Origin: Escherichia coli
GTDB taxonomy: Bacteria > Pseudomonadota > Gammaproteobacteria > Enterobacterales > Enterobacteriaceae
DNA length: 64,000 bases
Assembly: GCF_044324785.1 (NCBI RefSeq)
Contig: NZ_CP172128.1
Reading direction: 5' to 3' (one strand)
In this document: positions 49,147 through 62,390 of the stretch, one piece after another
Position numbering within the stretch: position 1 is the first letter of the stretch
Layout of the letters: each line of letters opens with the position of its first letter
Made by a program: the position numbers and the translations under genes
The notes under the pieces: generated by a model
Seen by the model: only the letters and a program-made list of their open reading frames with translations
The model's database searches: none
Told to the model about the DNA's origin: nothing

Positions 49147-49194
49147 AGTATGACGGAGACGGGCGGGAAACCGCCCGTTTCTTTTCCGACAAAG

Positions 49195-49551
49195 GATGTC
49201 GCCGGCGGCTCCGCTTTACCCGGCCATGCGGGGCATGGCCTTGTGGGTTTTCAACTCTGTAGCCTCAGCGTCGTGTGCGGGCTGTGCCGTGCCTCCATCG
49301 TAGCCGGGCTTCTGCGGGCGGGTTGCAAGGTAAGGTGAACCGCTGCGGTCACCCGGTCCCTCCTTCCCGTCTGCCGTGATTTTCCGGTCGTTCACCCGCT
49401 CAGATTTCGCGGTCTCACCCTCCAACTCCCGTCAGCCGTGTGCGTCAGGCTGCGGCTTCCCTTGCGCCCTTGCAACCCTGCAGGCCCGGCAAAGATGGAG
49501 GCACGGCACCGCCCGGTGTCGCGGAATATGTGAACAACGGAGGAAAACATC
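49195..49551 (+). repeat. GC-rich structured leading-region repeat, type B copy 1 (Frpo/ssi-like)
   Basis: ~360 bp nearly identical to 56148-56507; ends at klcA start. Confidence 0.6.
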
Positions 49552-50835: not shown

Positions 50836-51403
50836 ACTTCGGCTCCCGGCTGCCTGGCGGCATCCGGTCGTCAGGCCCGACTACGACAGGCAGCTGCTTG
50901 CGCACCCGCCAGTCTCCGCCGAACCCGCTGGCGCGGTTTCGGGCTGTCGCTACGGTCCGATGCGTGAAAAACCGGGCTTGCAGCGACCGTTCCGGTCGCG
51001 CCGCCTCTGTCGCGCCGTGACCTGCGCTCCCTGCACACCTGACGGTGTGTGAGGAAACTGCGCCTGATGGCGCAGCAGTCTTCCCTCCTGCCGCCACCTC
51101 TGCGGCCTGTTTCCCGCTGTGGACTTTCCGGGGGGCAGACGTAACCCCCTCCCGTTCCATCTGTCCAGGGTGAGATGCACCGGCCACAAAATTTTTAGCC
51201 ATGAACCCGGCTAAAAATTTTGCGTCCGCCCCCGGACAGCTGTCCCGTGAGGCGGTAAACGGGCCCCCATCGGAAAGGTCCACTGCGGGGAGAAACCCCT
51301 GTGAAGTGGACGGCAGGAGGAGCTTTCGCTCCTCTGAAGGGGCACATGAACGTCCCGTCGCCGGTATCCGGTTTATCTCACATCTTTCAGTCAGGAGGTT
51401 CTT
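50836..51403 (+). repeat. GC-rich structured leading-region repeat, type A copy 1 (Frpo/ssi-like)
   Basis: homologous to 57192-57739 and 60527-60897; ends at ssb start. Confidence 0.6.
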
Positions 51404-54298: not shown

Positions 54299-54733
54299 AT
54301 GAAAACTGAACTGACCCTGAATGTCCTGCAGACCATGAACGCACAGGAATATGAAGATATCCGTGCTGCGGGAAGCGATATGCGCCGTAATCTCACTCAC
54401 GAGGTGATGCGTAAAGTGGACGCACCGGCTAACTGGATGATGAATGGCGAGTATGGCAGTGAGTTCGGGGGCTTTTTCCCCGTCCAGGTTCGTTTCACGC
54501 CAGCCCACGAACGTTTCCACCTGGCATTATGTTCGCCGGGAGACGTCTCTCAACTCTGGATGCTGGTTCTGGTGAATGGTGGTGGACAGCCTTTCGCCGT
54601 CGTTCAGGTGCAACATATCTTCACGCCTGTCGCGATCAGTCACACGCTGGCGCTCGCCGCGACACTTGATGCGCAGGGATACAGTGTTAACGACATCATT
54701 CATATTTTGATGGCAGAAGGAGGTCAGGCATGA
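54299..54733 (+). CDS. psiB: PsiB, plasmid SOS-inhibition protein B
   Basis: [27 protein letters not shown].. matches PsiB. Confidence 0.85.
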
Positions 54734-55449
54734 GCGCACGTTCACGGGCACTGATCCCCCTCAGCGCAGAACAACAGGCCGCCATGCAGGCTGTGGCTGT
54801 CACCGAACAACGTCGTCGTCAGGGACGCACACTTTCAGCATGGCCTTATGCCAGCGCTTTCTTTCGCTGCCTGAATGGCAGTCGCCGGATTTCGCTGACC
54901 GATCTCCGCTTTTTTGCCCCTGCGCTGACGAAGGAGGAATTTCATGGCAACCGTCTCCTGTGGCTGGCTGCCGTGGATAAACTGATTGAAAGTTTTGGTG
55001 AAGTCTGTGTTCTTCCCCTGCCATCCGATGCGGGGCATCGTCTGTTCCCGTCTGTTCCTTTTCGTGAAGGTGAGCGTCGTCGTCAGAAAACCACGCTGAC
55101 AGAGCAGAAATACAGCCGCCAGCGGGAACGTGAGGCAGAACGACGGGAACTGGAATACCAGACATGTTTTGCTCAGGCGCAGATTGACCTTGCGTTTCAT
55201 ACTCCCGCCACGGTCGGAAGCTGGTTGTCCCGCTGGTCTGGTGTTGTTGAGGAGCATGATCTGGAAACGATTTTCTGGGGGTGGTGCGGGCGTTTTCCGT
55301 CACTGTCATCATTTGACCGGTTTTTCTGGCAGGAGGGACCACTCTGGCGGCTGATTTTTGAAGCCGGTGAGGCCGGTCGTGGTGCACCGGTACAGGTACG
55401 TGCACTTGAGCAGTGGATGATCCCGAACAAGCTGGAGAACGTAATATGA
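54730..55449 (+). CDS. psiA: PsiA
   Basis: 239-aa ORF overlapping psiB stop, PsiA-like. Confidence 0.75.
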
Positions 55450-56042
55450 TGAAATCAGACGAAAAATATCAGGTTCCCGTGTGGATGCGACCTCTGTTGC
55501 CGTTGCTCTGCAACACCGGGGGGAACGATCCGGAAGAACTGCTGAATGATACAGCAACCACTGTCAGTGCGAATGTTGTCCGTTATGTACTGATAGTTGC
55601 TGTGCGGTCGCAGGTTGATCTGCTGCAGATTCTGTACAGGAAAGGGCTGTTGCGCACAGAGATACCAGGTGGCTTTTCACCGGAAGAAGCGCAGGCACTC
55701 CTGGATAATCTGGTGCGCAGCCATATCAGCAGGGCGCTGTCGGGTGAGCGAATGGCAGCCCGTGACAGAAATGCCGATCTGGCCTGGATTCGACAGCAAC
55801 TGGTCGATGCCGCCTGGTTTGTCCGTGCCACACTGGAGGCGCATGGGATGGGCGTCGGAAATGAGAGTCCCCCTGCTCAGCCGGAGACAATGCCGGACAT
55901 ACAGACACGGGAACTGGTGATGTTGATCAAGCGACTGGCATCATCGCTGAAAGCGGTGAAACCGGACAGTTGTGTGGTGCGTGAAGCGCAGGACTGGCTG
56001 CGCGACAGAAAACTTGTGAGCATCACGGATGTTCTTCGGTGA
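55446..56042 (+). CDS. hypothetical leading-region protein
   Basis: ~198-aa ORF overlapping psiA stop. Confidence 0.45.
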   Translation: MMKSDEKYQVPVWMRPLLPLLCNTGGNDPEELLNDTATTVSANVVRYVLIVAVRSQVDLLQILYRKGLLRTEIPGGFSPEEAQALLDNLVRSHISRALSGERMAARDRNADLAWIRQQLVDAAWFVRATLEAHGMGVGNESPPAQPETMPDIQTRELVMLIKRLASSLKAVKPDSCVVREAQDWLRDRKLVSITDVLR

Positions 56043-56147
56043 ACCAGTGGAGGTATGCTTGAGGGGCAGGGACATGCCGGTCATGATCGTTTCGTTCCAG
56101 GGGTGGTCTGGAGATCATGCGGTGTGCTCCCTGCTCTCGCCGGAATA

Positions 56148-56507
56148 AGGACGTCGCCGGCGGCTCCGCTTTTACCCGGCCATGCGGGGCATGGCCTTGT
56201 GGGTTTTCAGGTATGAAGCCATCGTGTCGTGTGCGGGCTGTGCCGTGCCTCCATCGTAGCCGGGCTTCTGCGGGCGGGATGCAAAGGTACGCTTCGCCGC
56301 TGCGGTCACCCGGTCCCTCCTTCCCGTCTGCCGTGATTTTCCGGTCGTTCACCCGCTCAGATTTCGCGGTCTCACCCTCCAACTCCCGTCAGCCGTGCGC
56401 GTCGGGCTGCGGCTTTCCTTGCGCCCTTGCATCCCTGCAGGCCCGGCAAGGATGGAGGCACGGCACCGCCCGGTGCCGCAGAACATGTGACTATGGAGGA
56501 TTCGGGA
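56148..56507 (+). repeat. GC-rich structured leading-region repeat, type B copy 2 (Frpo/ssi-like)
   Basis: nearly identical to 49195-49551; ends at ardA start. Confidence 0.6.
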
Positions 56508-57008
56508 ATGTCTGTTGTTGCACCTGCTGTATACGTTGGAACCTGGCACAAATACAACTGCGGAAGCATCGCCGGACGCTGGTTTGACCTGACCACGTTT
56601 GATGATGAACGCGATTTTTTCGCCGCCTGCCGTGCCCTTCACCAGGATGAAACCGATCCGGAACTGATGTTTCAGGATTATGAGGGATTCCCGGGGAATA
56701 TGGCCTCTGAATGTCATATCAACTGGGCCTGGGTTGAAGGCTTCCGCCGGGCGCGGGATGAAGGCTGCGAAGAGGCTTATCGTCTCTGGGTGGATGATAC
56801 CGGTGAGACGGATTTTGACACCTTCCGCGATGCCTGGTGGGGCGAGGCTGACAGTGAGGAGGCTTTTGCGGTTGAGTTCGCCAGTGATACCGGCCTGCTG
56901 GCTGGCGTGCCGGAGACGGTGGCGCTCTATTTTGACTATGAGGCGTATGCGCGGGATTTATTCCTGGACTCCTTCACCTTTATTGACGGTCATGTGTTCC
57001 GTCGGTGA
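56508..57008 (+). CDS. ardA: ArdA antirestriction protein (DNA mimic)
   Basis: 166 aa from MSVVAPAVYVGTWHKYNCGSIAGRWFDL.., highly acidic. Confidence 0.85.
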   Translation: MSVVAPAVYVGTWHKYNCGSIAGRWFDLTTFDDERDFFAACRALHQDETDPELMFQDYEGFPGNMASECHINWAWVEGFRRARDEGCEEAYRLWVDDTGETDFDTFRDAWWGEADSEEAFAVEFASDTGLLAGVPETVALYFDYEAYARDLFLDSFTFIDGHVFRR

Positions 57009-57191: not shown

Positions 57192-57739
57192 TTCGGCTCC
57201 CGGCTGCCTGGCGGCATCCGGTCGTCAGGCCCGACTCCGACAGGCAGCTGCTGGCGCACCCGCCAGTCTCCGCCGAACCCGCTGGCGCGGTTTCGGGCTG
57301 CCGCTACGGTCCGATGTCTGAAAAACCAGGCCTGCAGCGACCGTTCCGGTCGCGCCGCCCCTGTCGCGCCGGAAACGGCGCTCCCTGCACACCTGACGGT
57401 GTGTAAGGCCACTGCGCCTGATGGCGCAGTTGTCTGCCCTTCCGCCGCCACCCCTGCGGCCTGTTTCCCGCTGTGGACTTTCCGGGGGCTGAAGCGGCCA
57501 CAACACGTTTCAGCCGTCCAGGGGAGAGATGTACCAGCCACAAAACTTTTTGCCGCAGGCGTCAAAAACTTTTGCGTCTGCCCCCGGACAACTGCCCCGT
57601 GCCGTGGCAGTCGCTGCCCCATCGGAAAGGTCCACTGCGGGGAGAAACCCCGAAGAAGTGGACGGCAGAAGGGGCTTTCGCCCCTCCGGGGAATAACCGG
57701 TCGGCCCGGCGACCTGATTCAGCAGAAGGAGACTTTTTC
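57192..57739 (+). repeat. GC-rich structured leading-region repeat, type A copy 2 (Frpo/ssi-like)
   Basis: homologous to 50836-51403 and 60527-60897. Confidence 0.6.
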
Positions 57740-58174
57740 ATGACAGTCAGCAGCACGATTTCCGTTTTTTGCCGCGACGGGGTGTTCCGTACCGTTTACT
57801 GCCACCTGCACGGTGAGCCGGCCCGGAACGGTCGCATCCTGCATACCCACTATGCCACCGGTCAGCAGGCCGAAGCCCTAGTTGAACACGGTGATATCCG
57901 TTGCCTCGGTCCCCGTTGCGACAAACCCGCCGGGCATACGCTTCAGAACCCGGTGGACGGTGTGACGGCTTATTACGGACGTGACAGTGGTTTCCGGATG
58001 GACAGTGAAGCGCGTGAGTACCGCTCTTTCAGGGAGGCTATTGCCACTGAAAGCACAGAAGAGGTGCGCTTCCATTATGTGTTCATCGACGGCTACTGGA
58101 AGGTGATGTACCGCACGCCGGAAGGCTGGAAGATGAAAGCGCTCGCGCTGGCACTGCGTCGCTGTCCGGAATGA
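57740..58174 (+). CDS. hypothetical leading-region protein (144 aa)
   Basis: AAGGAG RBS 8 bp before ATG at 57740; Cys/His-containing; not recognised. Confidence 0.5.
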   Translation: MTVSSTISVFCRDGVFRTVYCHLHGEPARNGRILHTHYATGQQAEALVEHGDIRCLGPRCDKPAGHTLQNPVDGVTAYYGRDSGFRMDSEAREYRSFREAIATESTEEVRFHYVFIDGYWKVMYRTPEGWKMKALALALRRCPE

Positions 58175-58266: not shown

Positions 58267-58533
58267 ATGAGACCATCAATTATCTTCGCAACCGCCGAGT
58301 ATGTAAAGCGTCTGCGTGAAGAGTGCCGGCGGGAGAACAAACCCCTGCACCGCCATACCCGCTTCAGACGCCAGGAACTGGCACCGGATGAGATTAACCC
58401 GGACGTCCTGGCGATGGGCGGTCATATCGCCAGACGCTGCAGTGAGCGGAAGCGGGTGCGTATCCCCGCCATGAAAGTCAGCGAATGGGGCCACCTGCTC
58501 CGCGCGCTTGAAATTGAACGGGTCTGCCACTGA
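58267..58533 (+). CDS. hypothetical small basic protein
   Basis: 88-aa ORF; weak support. Confidence 0.3.
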   Translation: MRPSIIFATAEYVKRLREECRRENKPLHRHTRFRRQELAPDEINPDVLAMGGHIARRCSERKRVRIPAMKVSEWGHLLRALEIERVCH

Positions 58534-58597
58534 TTACCCCTTGCCGTCTGCCTGTGCAGGCGGCAGGATACGTTCAGACATCTCACCAGGAGGAACC

Positions 58598-59560
58598 GTG
58601 AGTAAGAAGAAAAACACCACAACGCCCACGCCGCATGATGCTGCGTTCCGGTCGTTCCTGGCGAATCCCGACGTCGCCAGAGATTTTCTGGAACTGCATC
58701 TTCCGGCGGAGTACCGGCAGTTGTGCGACCTGTCCACGCTGAAGCTGGAACCCGCCACCTTTGTTGAGCCGGACCTGCATCAGTACGCCAGCGATATCCT
58801 CTGGAGTGTGAAAACCACCGGGGGTGAAGACGGCTATGTTTATACGCTCATCGAGCACCAGAGCACCGAAAATCTGTACATGCCTTTCCGCATGATACGT
58901 TACAGTGTGGCGGCGATGCAGAGACATCTGGAGCAGCACAAAACATTGCCACTGGTGATTCCGGTGCTGTTCTATCATGGTGAGCGCAGCCCGTACCCGT
59001 ACAGCATGAACTGGCTGGACTGTTTTGAGGATCCGGCGCTTGCGGCTAAAATATACACAAAGCCGTTTCCGCTGGTTGATATCACTGTCGTTGATGACAA
59101 TGAAATCATGAACCATCGCCGGATGGCCGCACTGACGCTGCTGATGAAGCATATCCGCCATCGTGACATGATGGAGCTGCTGGACAAACTCCCGCAGGTC
59201 ATGGTGGAAATTTCAGACGAGCAGGTGCGTGTTCTGATTCATTACATCGTTAACGCAGGGGACTCTGTATCACCGGAATTTATGCGGGCGCTGGCTGAGC
59301 GTCTGCCGCAGCATGAGGATAAACTGATGACTATTGCCGAACGTCTTGAGCAGCAAGGAATACAGAAAGGAATACAGCAGGGAATACAGCAGGGAATACA
59401 GCAGGGAATACAGCAGGGAATACAGCAGGGAATACAGAAAGGCCGCATGGAGGAGAAGCAGGATATTGCGCGTCAGCTTCAGAAAACGGGAATGCCATCT
59501 GCACAAATCTGTCAGATCACCGGACTTTCCGAAGCTGAACTGAAGAACATCACTCACTGA
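58598..59560 (+). CDS. Rpn-family (YhgA-like) recombination-promoting nuclease / putative transposase
   Basis: GTG start after AGGAGG RBS; N-terminus ..TPHDAAFRSFLANPDVARDFLELHLP.. and ..YTLIEHQS.. typical of Rpn/YhgA PD-(D/E)XK proteins; C-terminal (GIQQ)x7 repeat. Confidence 0.7.
   Translation: MSKKKNTTTPTPHDAAFRSFLANPDVARDFLELHLPAEYRQLCDLSTLKLEPATFVEPDLHQYASDILWSVKTTGGEDGYVYTLIEHQSTENLYMPFRMIRYSVAAMQRHLEQHKTLPLVIPVLFYHGERSPYPYSMNWLDCFEDPALAAKIYTKPFPLVDITVVDDNEIMNHRRMAALTLLMKHIRHRDMMELLDKLPQVMVEISDEQVRVLIHYIVNAGDSVSPEFMRALAERLPQHEDKLMTIAERLEQQGIQKGIQQGIQQGIQQGIQQGIQQGIQKGRMEEKQDIARQLQKTGMPSAQICQITGLSEAELKNITH
59357..59440 (+). repeat. in-frame 12-bp tandem repeat x7 (GGAATACAGCAG) encoding (GIQQ)n inside rpn-like gene
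   Basis: perfect tandem copies visible directly. Confidence 0.85.
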
Positions 59561-59571
59561 TGAGAACCACA

Positions 59572-59598
59572 AAGCCCGGCAAAATGCCGGGTTTTTTT
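59572..59598 (+). terminator. rho-independent terminator-like hairpin
   Basis: AAAGCCCGGCAAAATGCCGGGTTTTTTTG. Confidence 0.6.
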
Positions 59599-59622
59599 GT
59601 CAGCAGGAGCAGAGCAAACAGC

Positions 59623-59784
59623 ATGACGATTGCAGAACGTCTTGAGCAAAAAGGTCGCCAGGAAGGAGCGCTTGAAAAAGCCCTGGCCATTGCGTGCCAG
59701 CTTCAGAAAATGGGGATGACGCCGGAGCAGATTAAGCAGGCTACCGGACTGTCCGAAGCTGAACTGAAAAAAATCATTCACTGA
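59623..59784 (+). CDS. stand-alone Rpn C-terminal-domain paralog (53 aa)
   Basis: MTIAERLEQKG..GLSEAELKKIIH parallels the C-terminus of the upstream Rpn-like protein. Confidence 0.45.
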   Translation: MTIAERLEQKGRQEGALEKALAIACQLQKMGMTPEQIKQATGLSEAELKKIIH

Positions 59785-59794
59785 TGAGAGCATC

Positions 59795-59822
59795 ACAGCC
59801 CGGCAGAATGCCGGGCTTTTTT
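59795..59822 (+). terminator. rho-independent terminator-like hairpin
   Basis: CAGCCCGGCAGAATGCCGGGCTTTTTTG. Confidence 0.6.
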
Positions 59823-59842
59823 GCCAGCAGGGGCAGAGCAGT

Positions 59843-60037
59843 ATGACTATTGCAGAACGTCTTATACAGAAAGGTTTCGACGAGGGTTTTAAACAAGGTT
59901 TTAAACAAGGGGCTCTTGAAGTGGCGCGGGAAATAGCCTGCCGGCTGCGGGATATAGGCTGGCCGCCGGAACGGATTCAGGAGGTCACGGGACTTTCCGG
60001 TGAAGAACTGAAAAAGCTGTTTCCTGATGAGCAGTAG
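59843..60037 (+). CDS. stand-alone Rpn C-terminal-domain paralog (64 aa)
   Basis: MTIAERLIQKG..GLSGEELKKLF parallels the same domain. Confidence 0.45.
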   Translation: MTIAERLIQKGFDEGFKQGFKQGALEVAREIACRLRDIGWPPERIQEVTGLSGEELKKLFPDEQ

Positions 60038-60320: not shown

Positions 60321-60526
60321 AAAACACCTTTGAAAAAGTGAAAAAACTTCACTTTATTTTATCATCATAATCATCAAATCAGCGCGATAAATAAGTGTAA
60401 AAAAATGAAGAAATTTCACTTTTTTTTGCTTGTAAATGTCGTGCGGTTTTCTCTGTTTTCACCTGTGCGGGAGTGGTGTGCCAGTGACCACCACATGCCA
60501 TTGTTGTGCCGTCGTTTTTCTTCAGT

Positions 60527-60897
60527 CGCGCCGTATGCGGCGCTCCCTGCACACCTTACGGTGTGTAAGGCCACTGCGCCTGATGGCGCAGCTGTCTCTG
60601 CCTGTCTGCCGCCGCACTGCGGCCTGTTCTCCGCAGACGGACTTTCCGGGGGTACATACATGACCACATCCCGTTTCAGTCGTCCAGGGGAGAGATGTAC
60701 CAGCCACAAAACTTTTTGCCGCAGGCGTCAAAAACTTTTGCGTCTGCCCCCGGACAACTGCCCCGTGACGTGGTGAGCGTCCCCCGTCGGAAAGGTCCAC
60801 TGCGGGGAAATCCCCGAAGACCCGGACGGCAGAAGGAGCTTCGCTCCTCCGGGAAATGACCTGGCTGACCCGGCAGTCGTGACGATGAGGAGACAAT
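60527..60897 (+). repeat. GC-rich structured leading-region repeat, type A copy 3 (Frpo/ssi-like)
   Basis: homologous to the 3' ~370 bp of the other type A copies. Confidence 0.6.
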
Positions 60898-60900
60898 GTG

Positions 60901-61749
60901 ATGAATCAGACTTTACCCACTGCTGACCTGAATACTGCCGGCACGACAGATGTTATTCCGTCTGTGGCTATCGACCGCATCATCGCGCAGCGTAACGAAG
61001 GTATTGCACTGTTCATGCAGGCGATGGAATGCCTGGCGACAGCGCGCAAGATTCTGCTCGATGCGTCAGGTGATATTTTTCTTTACGGGTTTGAAGACTG
61101 CGTGACTGATTCCGTTCGTCGCATAGATAAACCGGAAGAAGCGAAAAGGAATATCACCCGTCTTGCCGACCGGAAAATCTGGGAGCGCCTGATGACAGAT
61201 ACGGGCATGTACACCTTCATGAGTTCATGCCAGCGTGATGAGTGGAACAGCCAGCTGATGAGCGACACCTGTCCTGAAATCACCCTGGACAATGTACTGG
61301 CAACATTCCGCCATCTGAATGCCTGCAAGATGCAGACATTTGAACAGGGACTGATTGATGTCTACCGGAAATTGTCATGGGATTACAGAACCAATAATCC
61401 CTGCCGTCTGGGTAAGAAAATCATTATTGAAAACCTGCTGTACCGCTGGAGTAACGGGCGTGTGACGCTGGACTGCAGCGGACGGGAGGCACTGGATGAC
61501 CTGGTACGTCCGTTTTATCTGCTGGAGGGGCGCAACGTTCCTGACTTCAGGAACAGCATCGGGGCGCAGTATGGTGAATTTCTCGGGAACGGCGACAATG
61601 TCGGTAAGCTGTTAGAAGGGGAATATTTTACGGTGCGTGGCTACCAGAAAGGGACCGTACACATTGTCTTTAATCGTTCTGACCTTGTTGAAAAACTGAA
61701 TGATATTATTGCACGGCATTATCCAGGTGTATTGCCGCCACGAGTCTGA
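60901..61749 (+). CDS. hypothetical leading-region protein (282 aa)
   Basis: GAGGAG RBS; long ORF ending at a strong terminator; not recognised. Confidence 0.5.
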   Translation: MNQTLPTADLNTAGTTDVIPSVAIDRIIAQRNEGIALFMQAMECLATARKILLDASGDIFLYGFEDCVTDSVRRIDKPEEAKRNITRLADRKIWERLMTDTGMYTFMSSCQRDEWNSQLMSDTCPEITLDNVLATFRHLNACKMQTFEQGLIDVYRKLSWDYRTNNPCRLGKKIIIENLLYRWSNGRVTLDCSGREALDDLVRPFYLLEGRNVPDFRNSIGAQYGEFLGNGDNVGKLLEGEYFTVRGYQKGTVHIVFNRSDLVEKLNDIIARHYPGVLPPRV

Positions 61750-61758
61750 TTAAACAGA

Positions 61759-61790
61759 AAAGCCCTGGTATTTATGCCGGGGCTTTTTTT
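61759..61790 (+). terminator. rho-independent terminator
   Basis: AAAAGCCCTGGTATTTATGCCGGGGCTTTTTTTTC. Confidence 0.65.
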
Positions 61791-61834
61791 TCTGTAATCA
61801 TCATAATCTCAGAACACGATGTGACATTGTCACA

Positions 61835-62176
61835 TCAATTGTTGTTCATATCGATGCCATCTTTCCTGCCTGAATCTGTCTTTTTAGGTGCTGTTTTAGA
61901 GGAAGAACGGCGGGATGGTTTTTTCGATTCTGCTTCCCGAATAATGTCACGAAGTGCCTTCTCTCCTACTTCATACCCTGCATTTTTGAGCGTGTCACGA
62001 ACATCTGCCAGTGTATAACCCTTTGTCCTTATCAGGACAATAATGTCATCACGAATGGCATCAAGAAAATCACGCAATGTTTTCCGTTGAGCGGTGAGAT
62101 CTGGCAATTCCGATAAAGCAGCTTTTGCCAGCTGGATGTCATCATCTGAGTAAAATTTTTTAGAAGCCATTGGCAC
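61835..62176 (-). CDS. hypothetical protein, divergent from nikA
   Basis: 113-aa ORF with Lys/Ser-rich basic tail. Confidence 0.4.
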   Translation of the reverse strand: MPMASKKFYSDDDIQLAKAALSELPDLTAQRKTLRDFLDAIRDDIIVLIRTKGYTLADVRDTLKNAGYEVGEKALRDIIREAESKKPSRRSSSKTAPKKTDSGRKDGIDMNNN

Positions 62177-62289: not shown

Positions 62290-62390
62290 TATAATGGCCT
62301 GAAAAACGGGACAGGATGTGTAATCGTATAACCGCGCACACACGGCTATACGATTACCACCTGGTCAGGGCTTAGCCCCGACACCCCGGT
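62290..62390 (+). promoter_or_regulatory. oriT region (putative nic site and NikA binding repeats) with nikA promoter
   Basis: inverted repeats CGTATAACC..GGCTATACG and GGGCTTAGCCC directly upstream of nikA, the expected oriT position in IncI-type transfer modules. Confidence 0.5.

Follow-up and report, generated by a model that had tools for sequence, protein, structure and literature searches.

A DUF4942 gene beside oriT of I-complex plasmids, with a single-strand promoter element of its own and a possible link to adenine methyltransferases

We analysed a stretch of 64,000 nucleotides of Escherichia coli DNA (NCBI RefSeq assembly GCF_044324785.1, contig NZ_CP172128.1), hereafter the window, with the focus on one open reading frame (ORF) of 282 amino acids (aa) that encodes a protein of the DUF4942 family near the transfer origin (oriT) of a conjugative plasmid. 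The gene is a one-gene unit composed of a single-stranded DNA (ssDNA) promoter element, a ribosome binding site (RBS), the coding sequence (CDS) and a terminator, and it lies about 0.6 kb from oriT (Table 1). The ORF was present exactly as the initial annotation had described it, and the GAGGAG RBS before it and the strong terminator behind it were both confirmed. An alternative GTG start, one codon upstream of the ATG, would extend the protein to 283 aa (60898..61749). None of 200 shuffled sequences folded as stably as the terminator, which a simple consensus scan did not detect. Between the upstream element and the ORF, a consensus scan found no convincing sigma-70 promoter of the double-stranded type.

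The DUF4942 gene has the same orientation as ssb, psiB and ardA and faces oriT and nikA. Because the leading-region genes all face oriT, the transferred strand (T-strand) is the minus strand, which is their template. E. coli plasmid pLH10-b-1-A (IncK2/Z, MOBP, MPF_I) carries the region at 100% identity, many IncI1 and I-complex plasmids carry it at 99% or more, and at the DNA level it was present in 2,249 plasmid records. The order of the genes is ardA, a 144-aa gene, an 88-aa gene, an Rpn gene, a helix-turn-helix (HTH) gene on the minus strand, the promoter element, the DUF4942 ORF, a mobC-like gene (yggA) on the minus strand, nikA and nikB; this order recurs in pESBL-EA11 and pMS7163B, and the part from the HTH gene to nikA is common to pLH10-b-1-A, pSTM709, pESBL and pMS7163B. 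We placed oriT by homology to the oriT region of pESBL, which was annotated at 70354-70436 (Table 2 of PMC4288162); its 3' 35 nt fall on 62353-62387 of the window. The only gene between the end of the DUF4942 ORF and oriT is the 113-aa yggA on the opposite strand. The claim that the ORF is the closest large gene to oriT is therefore correct, and the reasoning that it enters the recipient among the first genes also holds, since it is on the leading side, has the T-strand as its template and stands behind a promoter element of class 1.

Table 1. Positions of the DUF4942 gene, its control elements, the sibling elements and oriT in the window
Feature	Position	Strand	Remarks
DUF4942 family CDS, 282 aa	60901..61749	+	ATG start (PGAP choice); ortholog of ygfB, 'ydiA', pESBL Hp22 and pMS7163B_00760
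Shine-Dalgarno sequence GAGGAG	60887..60892	+	8 nt 5' of the ATG; read directly from the sequence
Intrinsic terminator	about 61758..61792	+	GC-rich hairpin, then U8; energy of the folded RNA -25.2 kcal/mol (z -5.7)
Frpo/ssi-type (class 1) single-strand promoter element, copy 3	60522..60874	-	long imperfect hairpin of the transferred strand; 5' of the DUF4942 ORF
Sibling Frpo/ssi element, copy 2	57363..57710	-	5' of the 57740 ORF; 85.6% identity to copy 3
Sibling Frpo/ssi element, copy 1	51006..51334	-	5' of ssb; 79.9% identity to copy 3
oriT (approximate, by homology)	62305..62390	.	pESBL oriT region, 98% identity to the window

The third Frpo-like element noted in front of the ORF is real. 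It belongs to a family of repeats with three copies in the window, each of 330-350 nt, and in all of them the fold of the minus strand, which is the T-strand, is more stable than that of the plus strand by 16-19 kcal/mol. The energies of the T-strand and the plus strand were -109 kcal/mol (z -8.1) and -89.6 kcal/mol (z -4.5) for copy 3, -123.8 and -107.9 kcal/mol for copy 2, and -121.4 and -103.1 kcal/mol for copy 1. This bias was absent from two coding-sequence controls, and the two Frpo regions of the F plasmid had a bias in the same direction (6-12 kcal/mol). The window copies and the F regions share segments of 73-96% identity. All three copies are also present in pESBL: copy 3 matches pESBL 68546-68946, immediately 5' of the gene Hp22, at 99.3% identity over 401 nt, and copy 1 is 99.3% identical to the pESBL copy 5' of ssb. 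Downstream of the pESBL copy nearest to oriT, Hp22 is the sole gene before a terminator and an opposing gene. Placing -35 and -10 hexamers by eye in the hairpin of copy 3 gave nothing convincing, and an Rfam scan of 56.5-62.8 kb found no RNA family. Some ORFs have been annotated inside the element and overlap the long hairpin, namely window 60405-60776 (+), called 'ygfA' in pSTM709, and pESBL 68401-68598 (-), a 'hypothetical protein'. They are probably artefacts of annotation and not genes.

The initial annotation had called the gene unknown, and this did not hold. A profile search gave DUF4942 (PF13708) in Pfam, with an i-Evalue of 1.2e-49 and a score of 169 over model positions 5-189 of 190 (residues 90-275), and the identical protein is named 'DUF4942 domain-containing protein' in RefSeq. 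The gene is the same as Hp22 of pESBL-EA11 (O3K_25947, also O3K_RS26015, 68947-69795; 6 of the 282 residues differ), 'YgfB' (ygfB) of R64-type plasmids, 'ydiA, putative methyltransferase_27' of pSTM709 (0 nucleotide differences) and pMS7163B_00760. Protein identity to these orthologs is 97.9-100% (97.9% for Hp22), and they have the same synteny, upstream ssi/Frpo element and distance to oriT, with no substantive difference. This gene had been catalogued before and had been placed in a leading-region family. In the literature on DUF4942, PF13708/Methyltransf_27 and ydiA/ygfB, we found incidental mentions and no functional study of the family.

The family is large. A relative is encoded in at least 5,000 plasmid records, and among 5,000 counted, 4,615 (92%) were predicted to be conjugative. 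In a representative library of 1.8 billion proteins, the family forms 1,925 clusters at 50% identity (E <= 0.001), and most of those listed stand alone, with lengths of about 260-290 aa. DUF4942 is among the 25 largest gene families enriched in leading regions. Families 24 and 76 of such genes are labelled 'Uncharacterized; DUF4942; Methyltransferase'; family 24 has 2,171 members (false discovery rate p = 0), a median position of 1 from oriT and an orientation that allows expression from the T-strand (Samuel et al. 2024). Our gene shares with these two families the Pfam family, the enrichment in leading regions and the T-strand-compatible orientation. Divergent homologs in Salmonella and Pantoea plasmids also lie within sets of leading-region genes, co-oriented with their neighbours and 3' of partial Frpo-type segments. 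Across standalone homologs of roughly 50% identity, the dN/dS ratio was 0.21 in a pair whose dS was unsaturated and 0.15-0.19 in pairs further apart. This purifying selection indicates that the standalone gene is not a decaying remnant. Contigs of distant metagenomic homologs were too short for an informative gene context. A chromosomal homolog in Salmonella Infantis (L012, 8914-9798; 34% identity) adjoins rhuM in SPI-3 and is annotated as two ORFs; this copy may be a pseudogene in that strain.

Expression of the gene can be judged from pESBL. During its conjugation, six operons were induced up to about 500-fold at 15 min, each preceded by a hairpin and with transcription starts confirmed by 5' rapid amplification of cDNA ends (RACE), and the Frpo-like hairpins ssi1-3 made up 'class 1', the strongest class (a 2025 study in Nucleic Acids Research (NAR), PMC12672017). 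By our matching of the sequences, the three pESBL copies would correspond to these ssi1-3 class-1 ssDNA promoters. Because copy 3 is nearly identical to a pESBL element that has only Hp22 downstream, we strongly infer that the DUF4942 gene would be expressed early and transiently from ssDNA. We consider the identity of the gene, the anatomy of the locus and its early expression, taken jointly, to be very likely.

The name methyltransferase, which is attached to the family in databases, needs to be clarified. The protein has no motif I, that is, no SAM-binding loop of the LEPSAGxG type, and motif IV, (D/N)PP(Y/F/W), is absent from all window ORFs of at least 150 aa, the DUF4942 ORF included. 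Pfam at E <= 10 gave DUF4942 only and no methyltransferase domain, NCBIfam gave nothing relevant, and the predicted model lacks the alternating beta/alpha arrangement of a Rossmann-like fold. With none of these four features, the standalone DUF4942 protein is not a methyltransferase, and we rejected this candidate function, which comes from 'methyltransferase_27' and from UniProt names. The label used by Samuel et al. (2024) was derived from database names and from Foldseek matches to proteins so named, and the features it implies are absent here. The label is wrong for the standalone form. Besides this clarification, the present analysis adds the evidence from fusions in two orders, the lack of a solved structural relative and the compilation of two negative genetic screens.

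In phages, the domain is fused to a methyltransferase. PHROG 6263 ('DNA methyltransferase', 548 positions) matches the window protein over the N-terminal half of the profile. In fusions of 460-561 aa from temperate phages of Pseudomonas, Marinomonas, Aeromonas and Rhizobium and from an E. coli phage-plasmid, such as phiPSA1 AHZ95053, Marinomonas P12026_32 and Aeromonas 2_D05 gp33, DUF4942 makes up the N-terminal half. The C-terminal 170-190 aa contain LEPSAGxG and, about 55 residues further on, NPPF/Y. At only about 70 residues, the rest of the protein is too short to hold a separate recognition domain. The order is reversed in Riemerella phage CRP6 (CRP6_000051) and in PHROG 32703, with motif I at residue 32, NPPF at residue 94 and DUF4942 at the C-terminus. 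Among the relatives of the fused branch, NPP[FY] was found in 26 of the 34 proteins of at least 400 aa, and at least two others are visibly cut off just past motif I; in the standalone branch it was found in 4 of 263 proteins, all of them fusions. The fusions share the whole DUF4942 module with the window protein, and with it the conserved W, D, H and N residues, but add a gamma-type core with motifs I and IV, while the window protein has neither motif and no core lies in the 64 kb.

DUF4942 is thus fused in both orders to one type of enzyme, a minimal gamma-type N6-adenine methyltransferase core. We regard this architecture as good evidence that the two work together, and in the simplest reading DUF4942 would be a module for substrate recognition or DNA binding. 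A second homolog search, in which the precomputed Pfam column held PF13708 only, found no other type of fusion partner. A split partner was also sought in the window, with the C-terminal halves of two fusions as phmmer queries (E <= 10) and by motif search, and none was found. The same small core occurs in giant phages, in multi-domain proteins annotated as DNA methyltransferases. Within the leading region of IncFII plasmid pHNAH968-2 (L025, 12440-14411), we observed a gene for a DUF3560 protein of 453 aa directly followed by the standalone 187-aa core WP_015059007, just 5' of ssb. This suggests a modular system in which one small methyltransferase core is combined with interchangeable accessory proteins. 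DUF3560 as a remote homolog of DUF4942 was rejected (hhalign probability 0.2%).

The structure search that had been proposed yielded no solved structural relative of DUF4942. The AlphaFold2 model, made from an alignment of 103 sequences, was confident, with a predicted local distance difference test (pLDDT) score of 90.6 and a predicted template modelling (pTM) score of 0.80; residues 24-159 are predicted to be helical, followed by two alpha-beta-beta-beta-alpha units at 143-273. Foldseek against AFDB50 listed only members of the same family, and profile and sequence searches of the PDB sequences gave no match. Among the weak structural matches, the only theme to recur was alpha/beta saddles that bind nucleic acids, namely the tRNA-binding domain of TilS and five LAGLIDADG endonucleases (2.7-3.2 Å over about 75 residues), which we take as a lead and not as evidence. 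The conserved positions cluster in short polar motifs, LSWDYKTNxP..GK, LDDLxR, PEPDHR and GxxHxxFxRxDLVxxxNxIIAKHYPxALP, and W94, L158, D200, H254 and N267 are invariant.

Gamma-class adenine methyltransferases use separate or C-terminal modules for target recognition, such as HsdS in type I systems and the C-terminal domain of M.TaqI. By analogy, DUF4942 would likewise be a non-catalytic module for a gamma core that has no recognition domain of its own, and the order in Riemerella (core, then DUF4942) mirrors the canonical gamma order. However, DUF4942 has no detectable similarity in sequence or fold to any solved recognition domain, and it is far more conserved than typical specificity domains. 

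One known leading-region protein for comparison is M.EcoGIX (of pESBL; YfbB of R64 and YfeA of F), an ssDNA-specific adenine methyltransferase that protects against restriction in the recipient. It resembles the DUF4942 gene in its place in the leading region, in early expression from an ssDNA promoter and in being dispensable in standard matings. It differs in that it is an unrelated true enzyme, annotated as 'DNA methylase', that it is behind a class-3 promoter, and that its operon is deleted in the plasmid of the window. The deletion is at about 49190-49205, where approximately 2.55 kb of pESBL (54456-57008) with the M.EcoGIX operon is missing, and M.EcoGIX had no tblastn match anywhere in the window. 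ArdA and KlcA/ArdB follow the same regulatory logic and occupy the same neighbourhood, but have no sequence similarity to the DUF4942 protein. No Pfam, NCBIfam or PDB-sequence match to an anti-restriction or anti-defence family (ArdA, ArdB/KlcA, Ocr, Dar, Acr and others) was found, and in a DIAMOND comparison with sets of anti-CRISPR and anti-restriction proteins, all 2,171 members of family 24 were without a match (Samuel et al. 2024). The sole PADLOC match, 35 residues to a 2TM effector model (E 0.0036), was too short and weak; we judged it spurious and rejected membership of a defence system. A clear homology to a known non-defence-related protein, or an absence of expression, would have spoken against the role in view in the initial annotation; no such homology was detected and there was no sign of absent expression.

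Considering all of this, we suggest the following explanation. When the T-strand enters the recipient, the element would fold into a promoter-like hairpin, the host RNA polymerase would transcribe the DUF4942 gene within minutes, and transcription would fade once the complementary strand is made, if the element behaves like its nearly identical counterpart in pESBL. As the domain architecture suggests, a minimal gamma-type N6-adenine methyltransferase core (LEPSAGxG ... NPPF/Y) may depend on DUF4942 for substrate recognition or as a partner, and here the module would be produced free of the core. The protein would attach to the plasmid DNA on entry, or to a resident methyltransferase or restriction complex, and would not methylate DNA by itself. 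The role would then be that of a transient and recipient-dependent factor for establishment or anti-restriction, useful in some recipients only. As a blend of identity, expression and mechanism, this is our best explanation, with a probability of roughly 0.5. The biochemical part, a recognition module without catalysis, is tentative when taken alone. That the standalone DUF4942 proteins form a new class of anti-restriction or establishment factors, namely freed recognition modules that the first kilobase of the entering ssDNA would yield in a burst, is an extension we still regard as doubtful. In this reading, protection could come from occluding the DNA or acting as a decoy for restriction complexes; alternatively, the protein could capture a methyltransferase core of the resident host and so speed up modification of the incoming DNA, which would be a Ral-like alleviation of restriction by an unrelated fold.

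Several points weigh against this explanation. The induction of Hp22 at the level of the gene is drawn from text on whole operons in PMC12672017. In transposon sequencing (Tn-seq) of pESBL, Hp22 was non-essential (1.00) and scored 0.00 for both maintenance and transfer (PMC4288162), and gene 760 of pMS7163B (69857-70705) had a log fold change (LogFC) of +1.02, while the cut-off for 'required' was -2 or lower (PMC10286972). The latter value was obtained in a cross of TOP10 to J53, which crosses the EcoKI barrier. In addition, the polar residues W94, D200, H254 and N267 are invariant, whereas target-recognition domains are usually variable. Both screens are negative: in laboratory matings of E. 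coli, neither transfer nor maintenance needs the orthologs. For comparison, the scores in the pESBL screen, in the same order, were 0/0/1.00 for NikA and 1.00/0/0 for ArdA, and nikB was also required for transfer (1.00); ArdA and M.EcoGIX were likewise dispensable there (PMC4288162). The recipients in the screens either posed no matched restriction barrier, as in the case of ArdA in pESBL, or ArdA and ArdB were present. Dispensability fits a conditional role and yet is not positive evidence for one.

Some of the same observations can be read in other ways. The gene may serve establishment without any relation to defence, for example in complementary-strand synthesis, in protection or recircularisation of ssDNA, or in a link to Pol I or SSB. 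On the T-strand, it is the gene that enters first; its element is of a type that in F also primes DNA synthesis, as far as the work of Masai and Arai is cited; the Pantoea homolog occupies the place that ssb has in pESBL and the window, between DUF1380 and DUF905 genes; and M.EcoGIX has been proposed to act with Pol I on the entering strand. We nevertheless find such a role unlikely, because the gene was dispensable for transfer in two saturating transposon screens, because temperate phages and chromosomal islands, which do not enter as ssDNA, carry the domain too, and because its consistent partner is a methyltransferase and not a replication protein. It is slightly less probable still that DUF4942 is itself an enzyme, such as a nuclease, a hydrolase or another protein that modifies nucleic acids, with host or plasmid nucleic acid as its substrate soon after entry. 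Within the fusions, the methyltransferase would then have a second catalytic domain beside it, as in type IIG-like proteins with two activities. The polar residues D90, W94, S159-W160, N165, D200, R203, D215, R217, H254 and N267, which are invariant or nearly so, cluster in short motifs and are kept in standalone and fused forms alike, and one phage homolog is annotated as an 'RE endonuclease'. The invariant polar pattern would also fit a catalytic site or a conserved site for partner binding.

The proximity to oriT and nikAB (0.6 kb or less from oriT in I-complex plasmids, with a median position of 1 for the family) might point to an accessory protein of the donor relaxosome or of oriT. This is most improbable: nikA and nikB were required for transfer with scores of 1.00 whereas the DUF4942 gene was not required, an oppositely oriented gene and its own terminator separate it from oriT, its homolog is 6-8 kb from the relaxase gene in the Salmonella plasmid and in the middle of the leading region in the Pantoea plasmid, and the family also occurs in phages. 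We give equally little credit to the idea that the gene was once part of a fused methyltransferase gene and is now a remnant without function, hitch-hiking in a conserved backbone. The absence of a phenotype in two screens and of a methyltransferase core in the window would agree with such a remnant, but intact ORFs are maintained in at least 5,000 plasmids and in the many, mostly standalone clusters of the family, selection is purifying (dN/dS about 0.15-0.21 across homologs of roughly 50% identity), and the gene has a strong promoter element, an RBS and a terminator of its own.

Among the major carriers of extended-spectrum beta-lactamase (ESBL) and other resistance genes are the I-complex and related conjugative plasmids, and whether transfer succeeds is decided in part by the proteins that are made first in a new host. 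In IncI-type plasmids, the DUF4942 gene is the first expressible gene to enter, and knowledge of its role would fill an obvious gap in the map of plasmid establishment. The domain looks like an obligate partner of a minimal adenine methyltransferase core, yet it is kept free of the core on thousands of conjugative plasmids. The gene is a good candidate for an anti-defence assay, though as a catalogued gene it is no surprise as a finding.

Some minor observations were made on the neighbouring genes. PGAP names yggA (61835-62176, minus strand) 'molybdopterin-guanine dinucleotide biosynthesis protein MobC', which seems to be the wrong name for a MobC-like or relaxosome-adjacent protein of plasmids; in the pESBL Tn-seq screen this gene was non-essential (0.99; PMC4288162). 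The gap that separates the DUF4942 terminator from the yggA stop codon holds a near-perfect palindrome of 19 nt, GATGTGACATTGTCACATC, at 61818-61836, which may serve as an operator or belong to a bidirectional terminator. Two genes are behind copy 2 of the Frpo/ssi element: the 144-aa gene (57740-58174, +), which is the '57740 ORF' of the initial annotation and is 98.6% identical to pMS7163B_00820, and the 88-aa gene of the YgdA type (58267-58533, +), which is 97.8% identical to pMS7163B_00810. Overexpression of pMS7163B_00810 led to a severe growth defect (PMC10286972). We considered whether DUF4942 was this toxic gene '810' and rejected it, as '810' is the 88-aa gene and DUF4942 is '760'. 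Within window 58508-60037 (+), the Rpn-family gene carries a tandem repeat of QGIQ and is followed by two small ORFs (59560-59784 and 59843-60037). Both start with a similar MTIAERL(E/I)QKG motif, a motif of this type is also found near the C-terminus of Rpn, and both small ORFs share the sequence pattern of the Rpn C-terminus.

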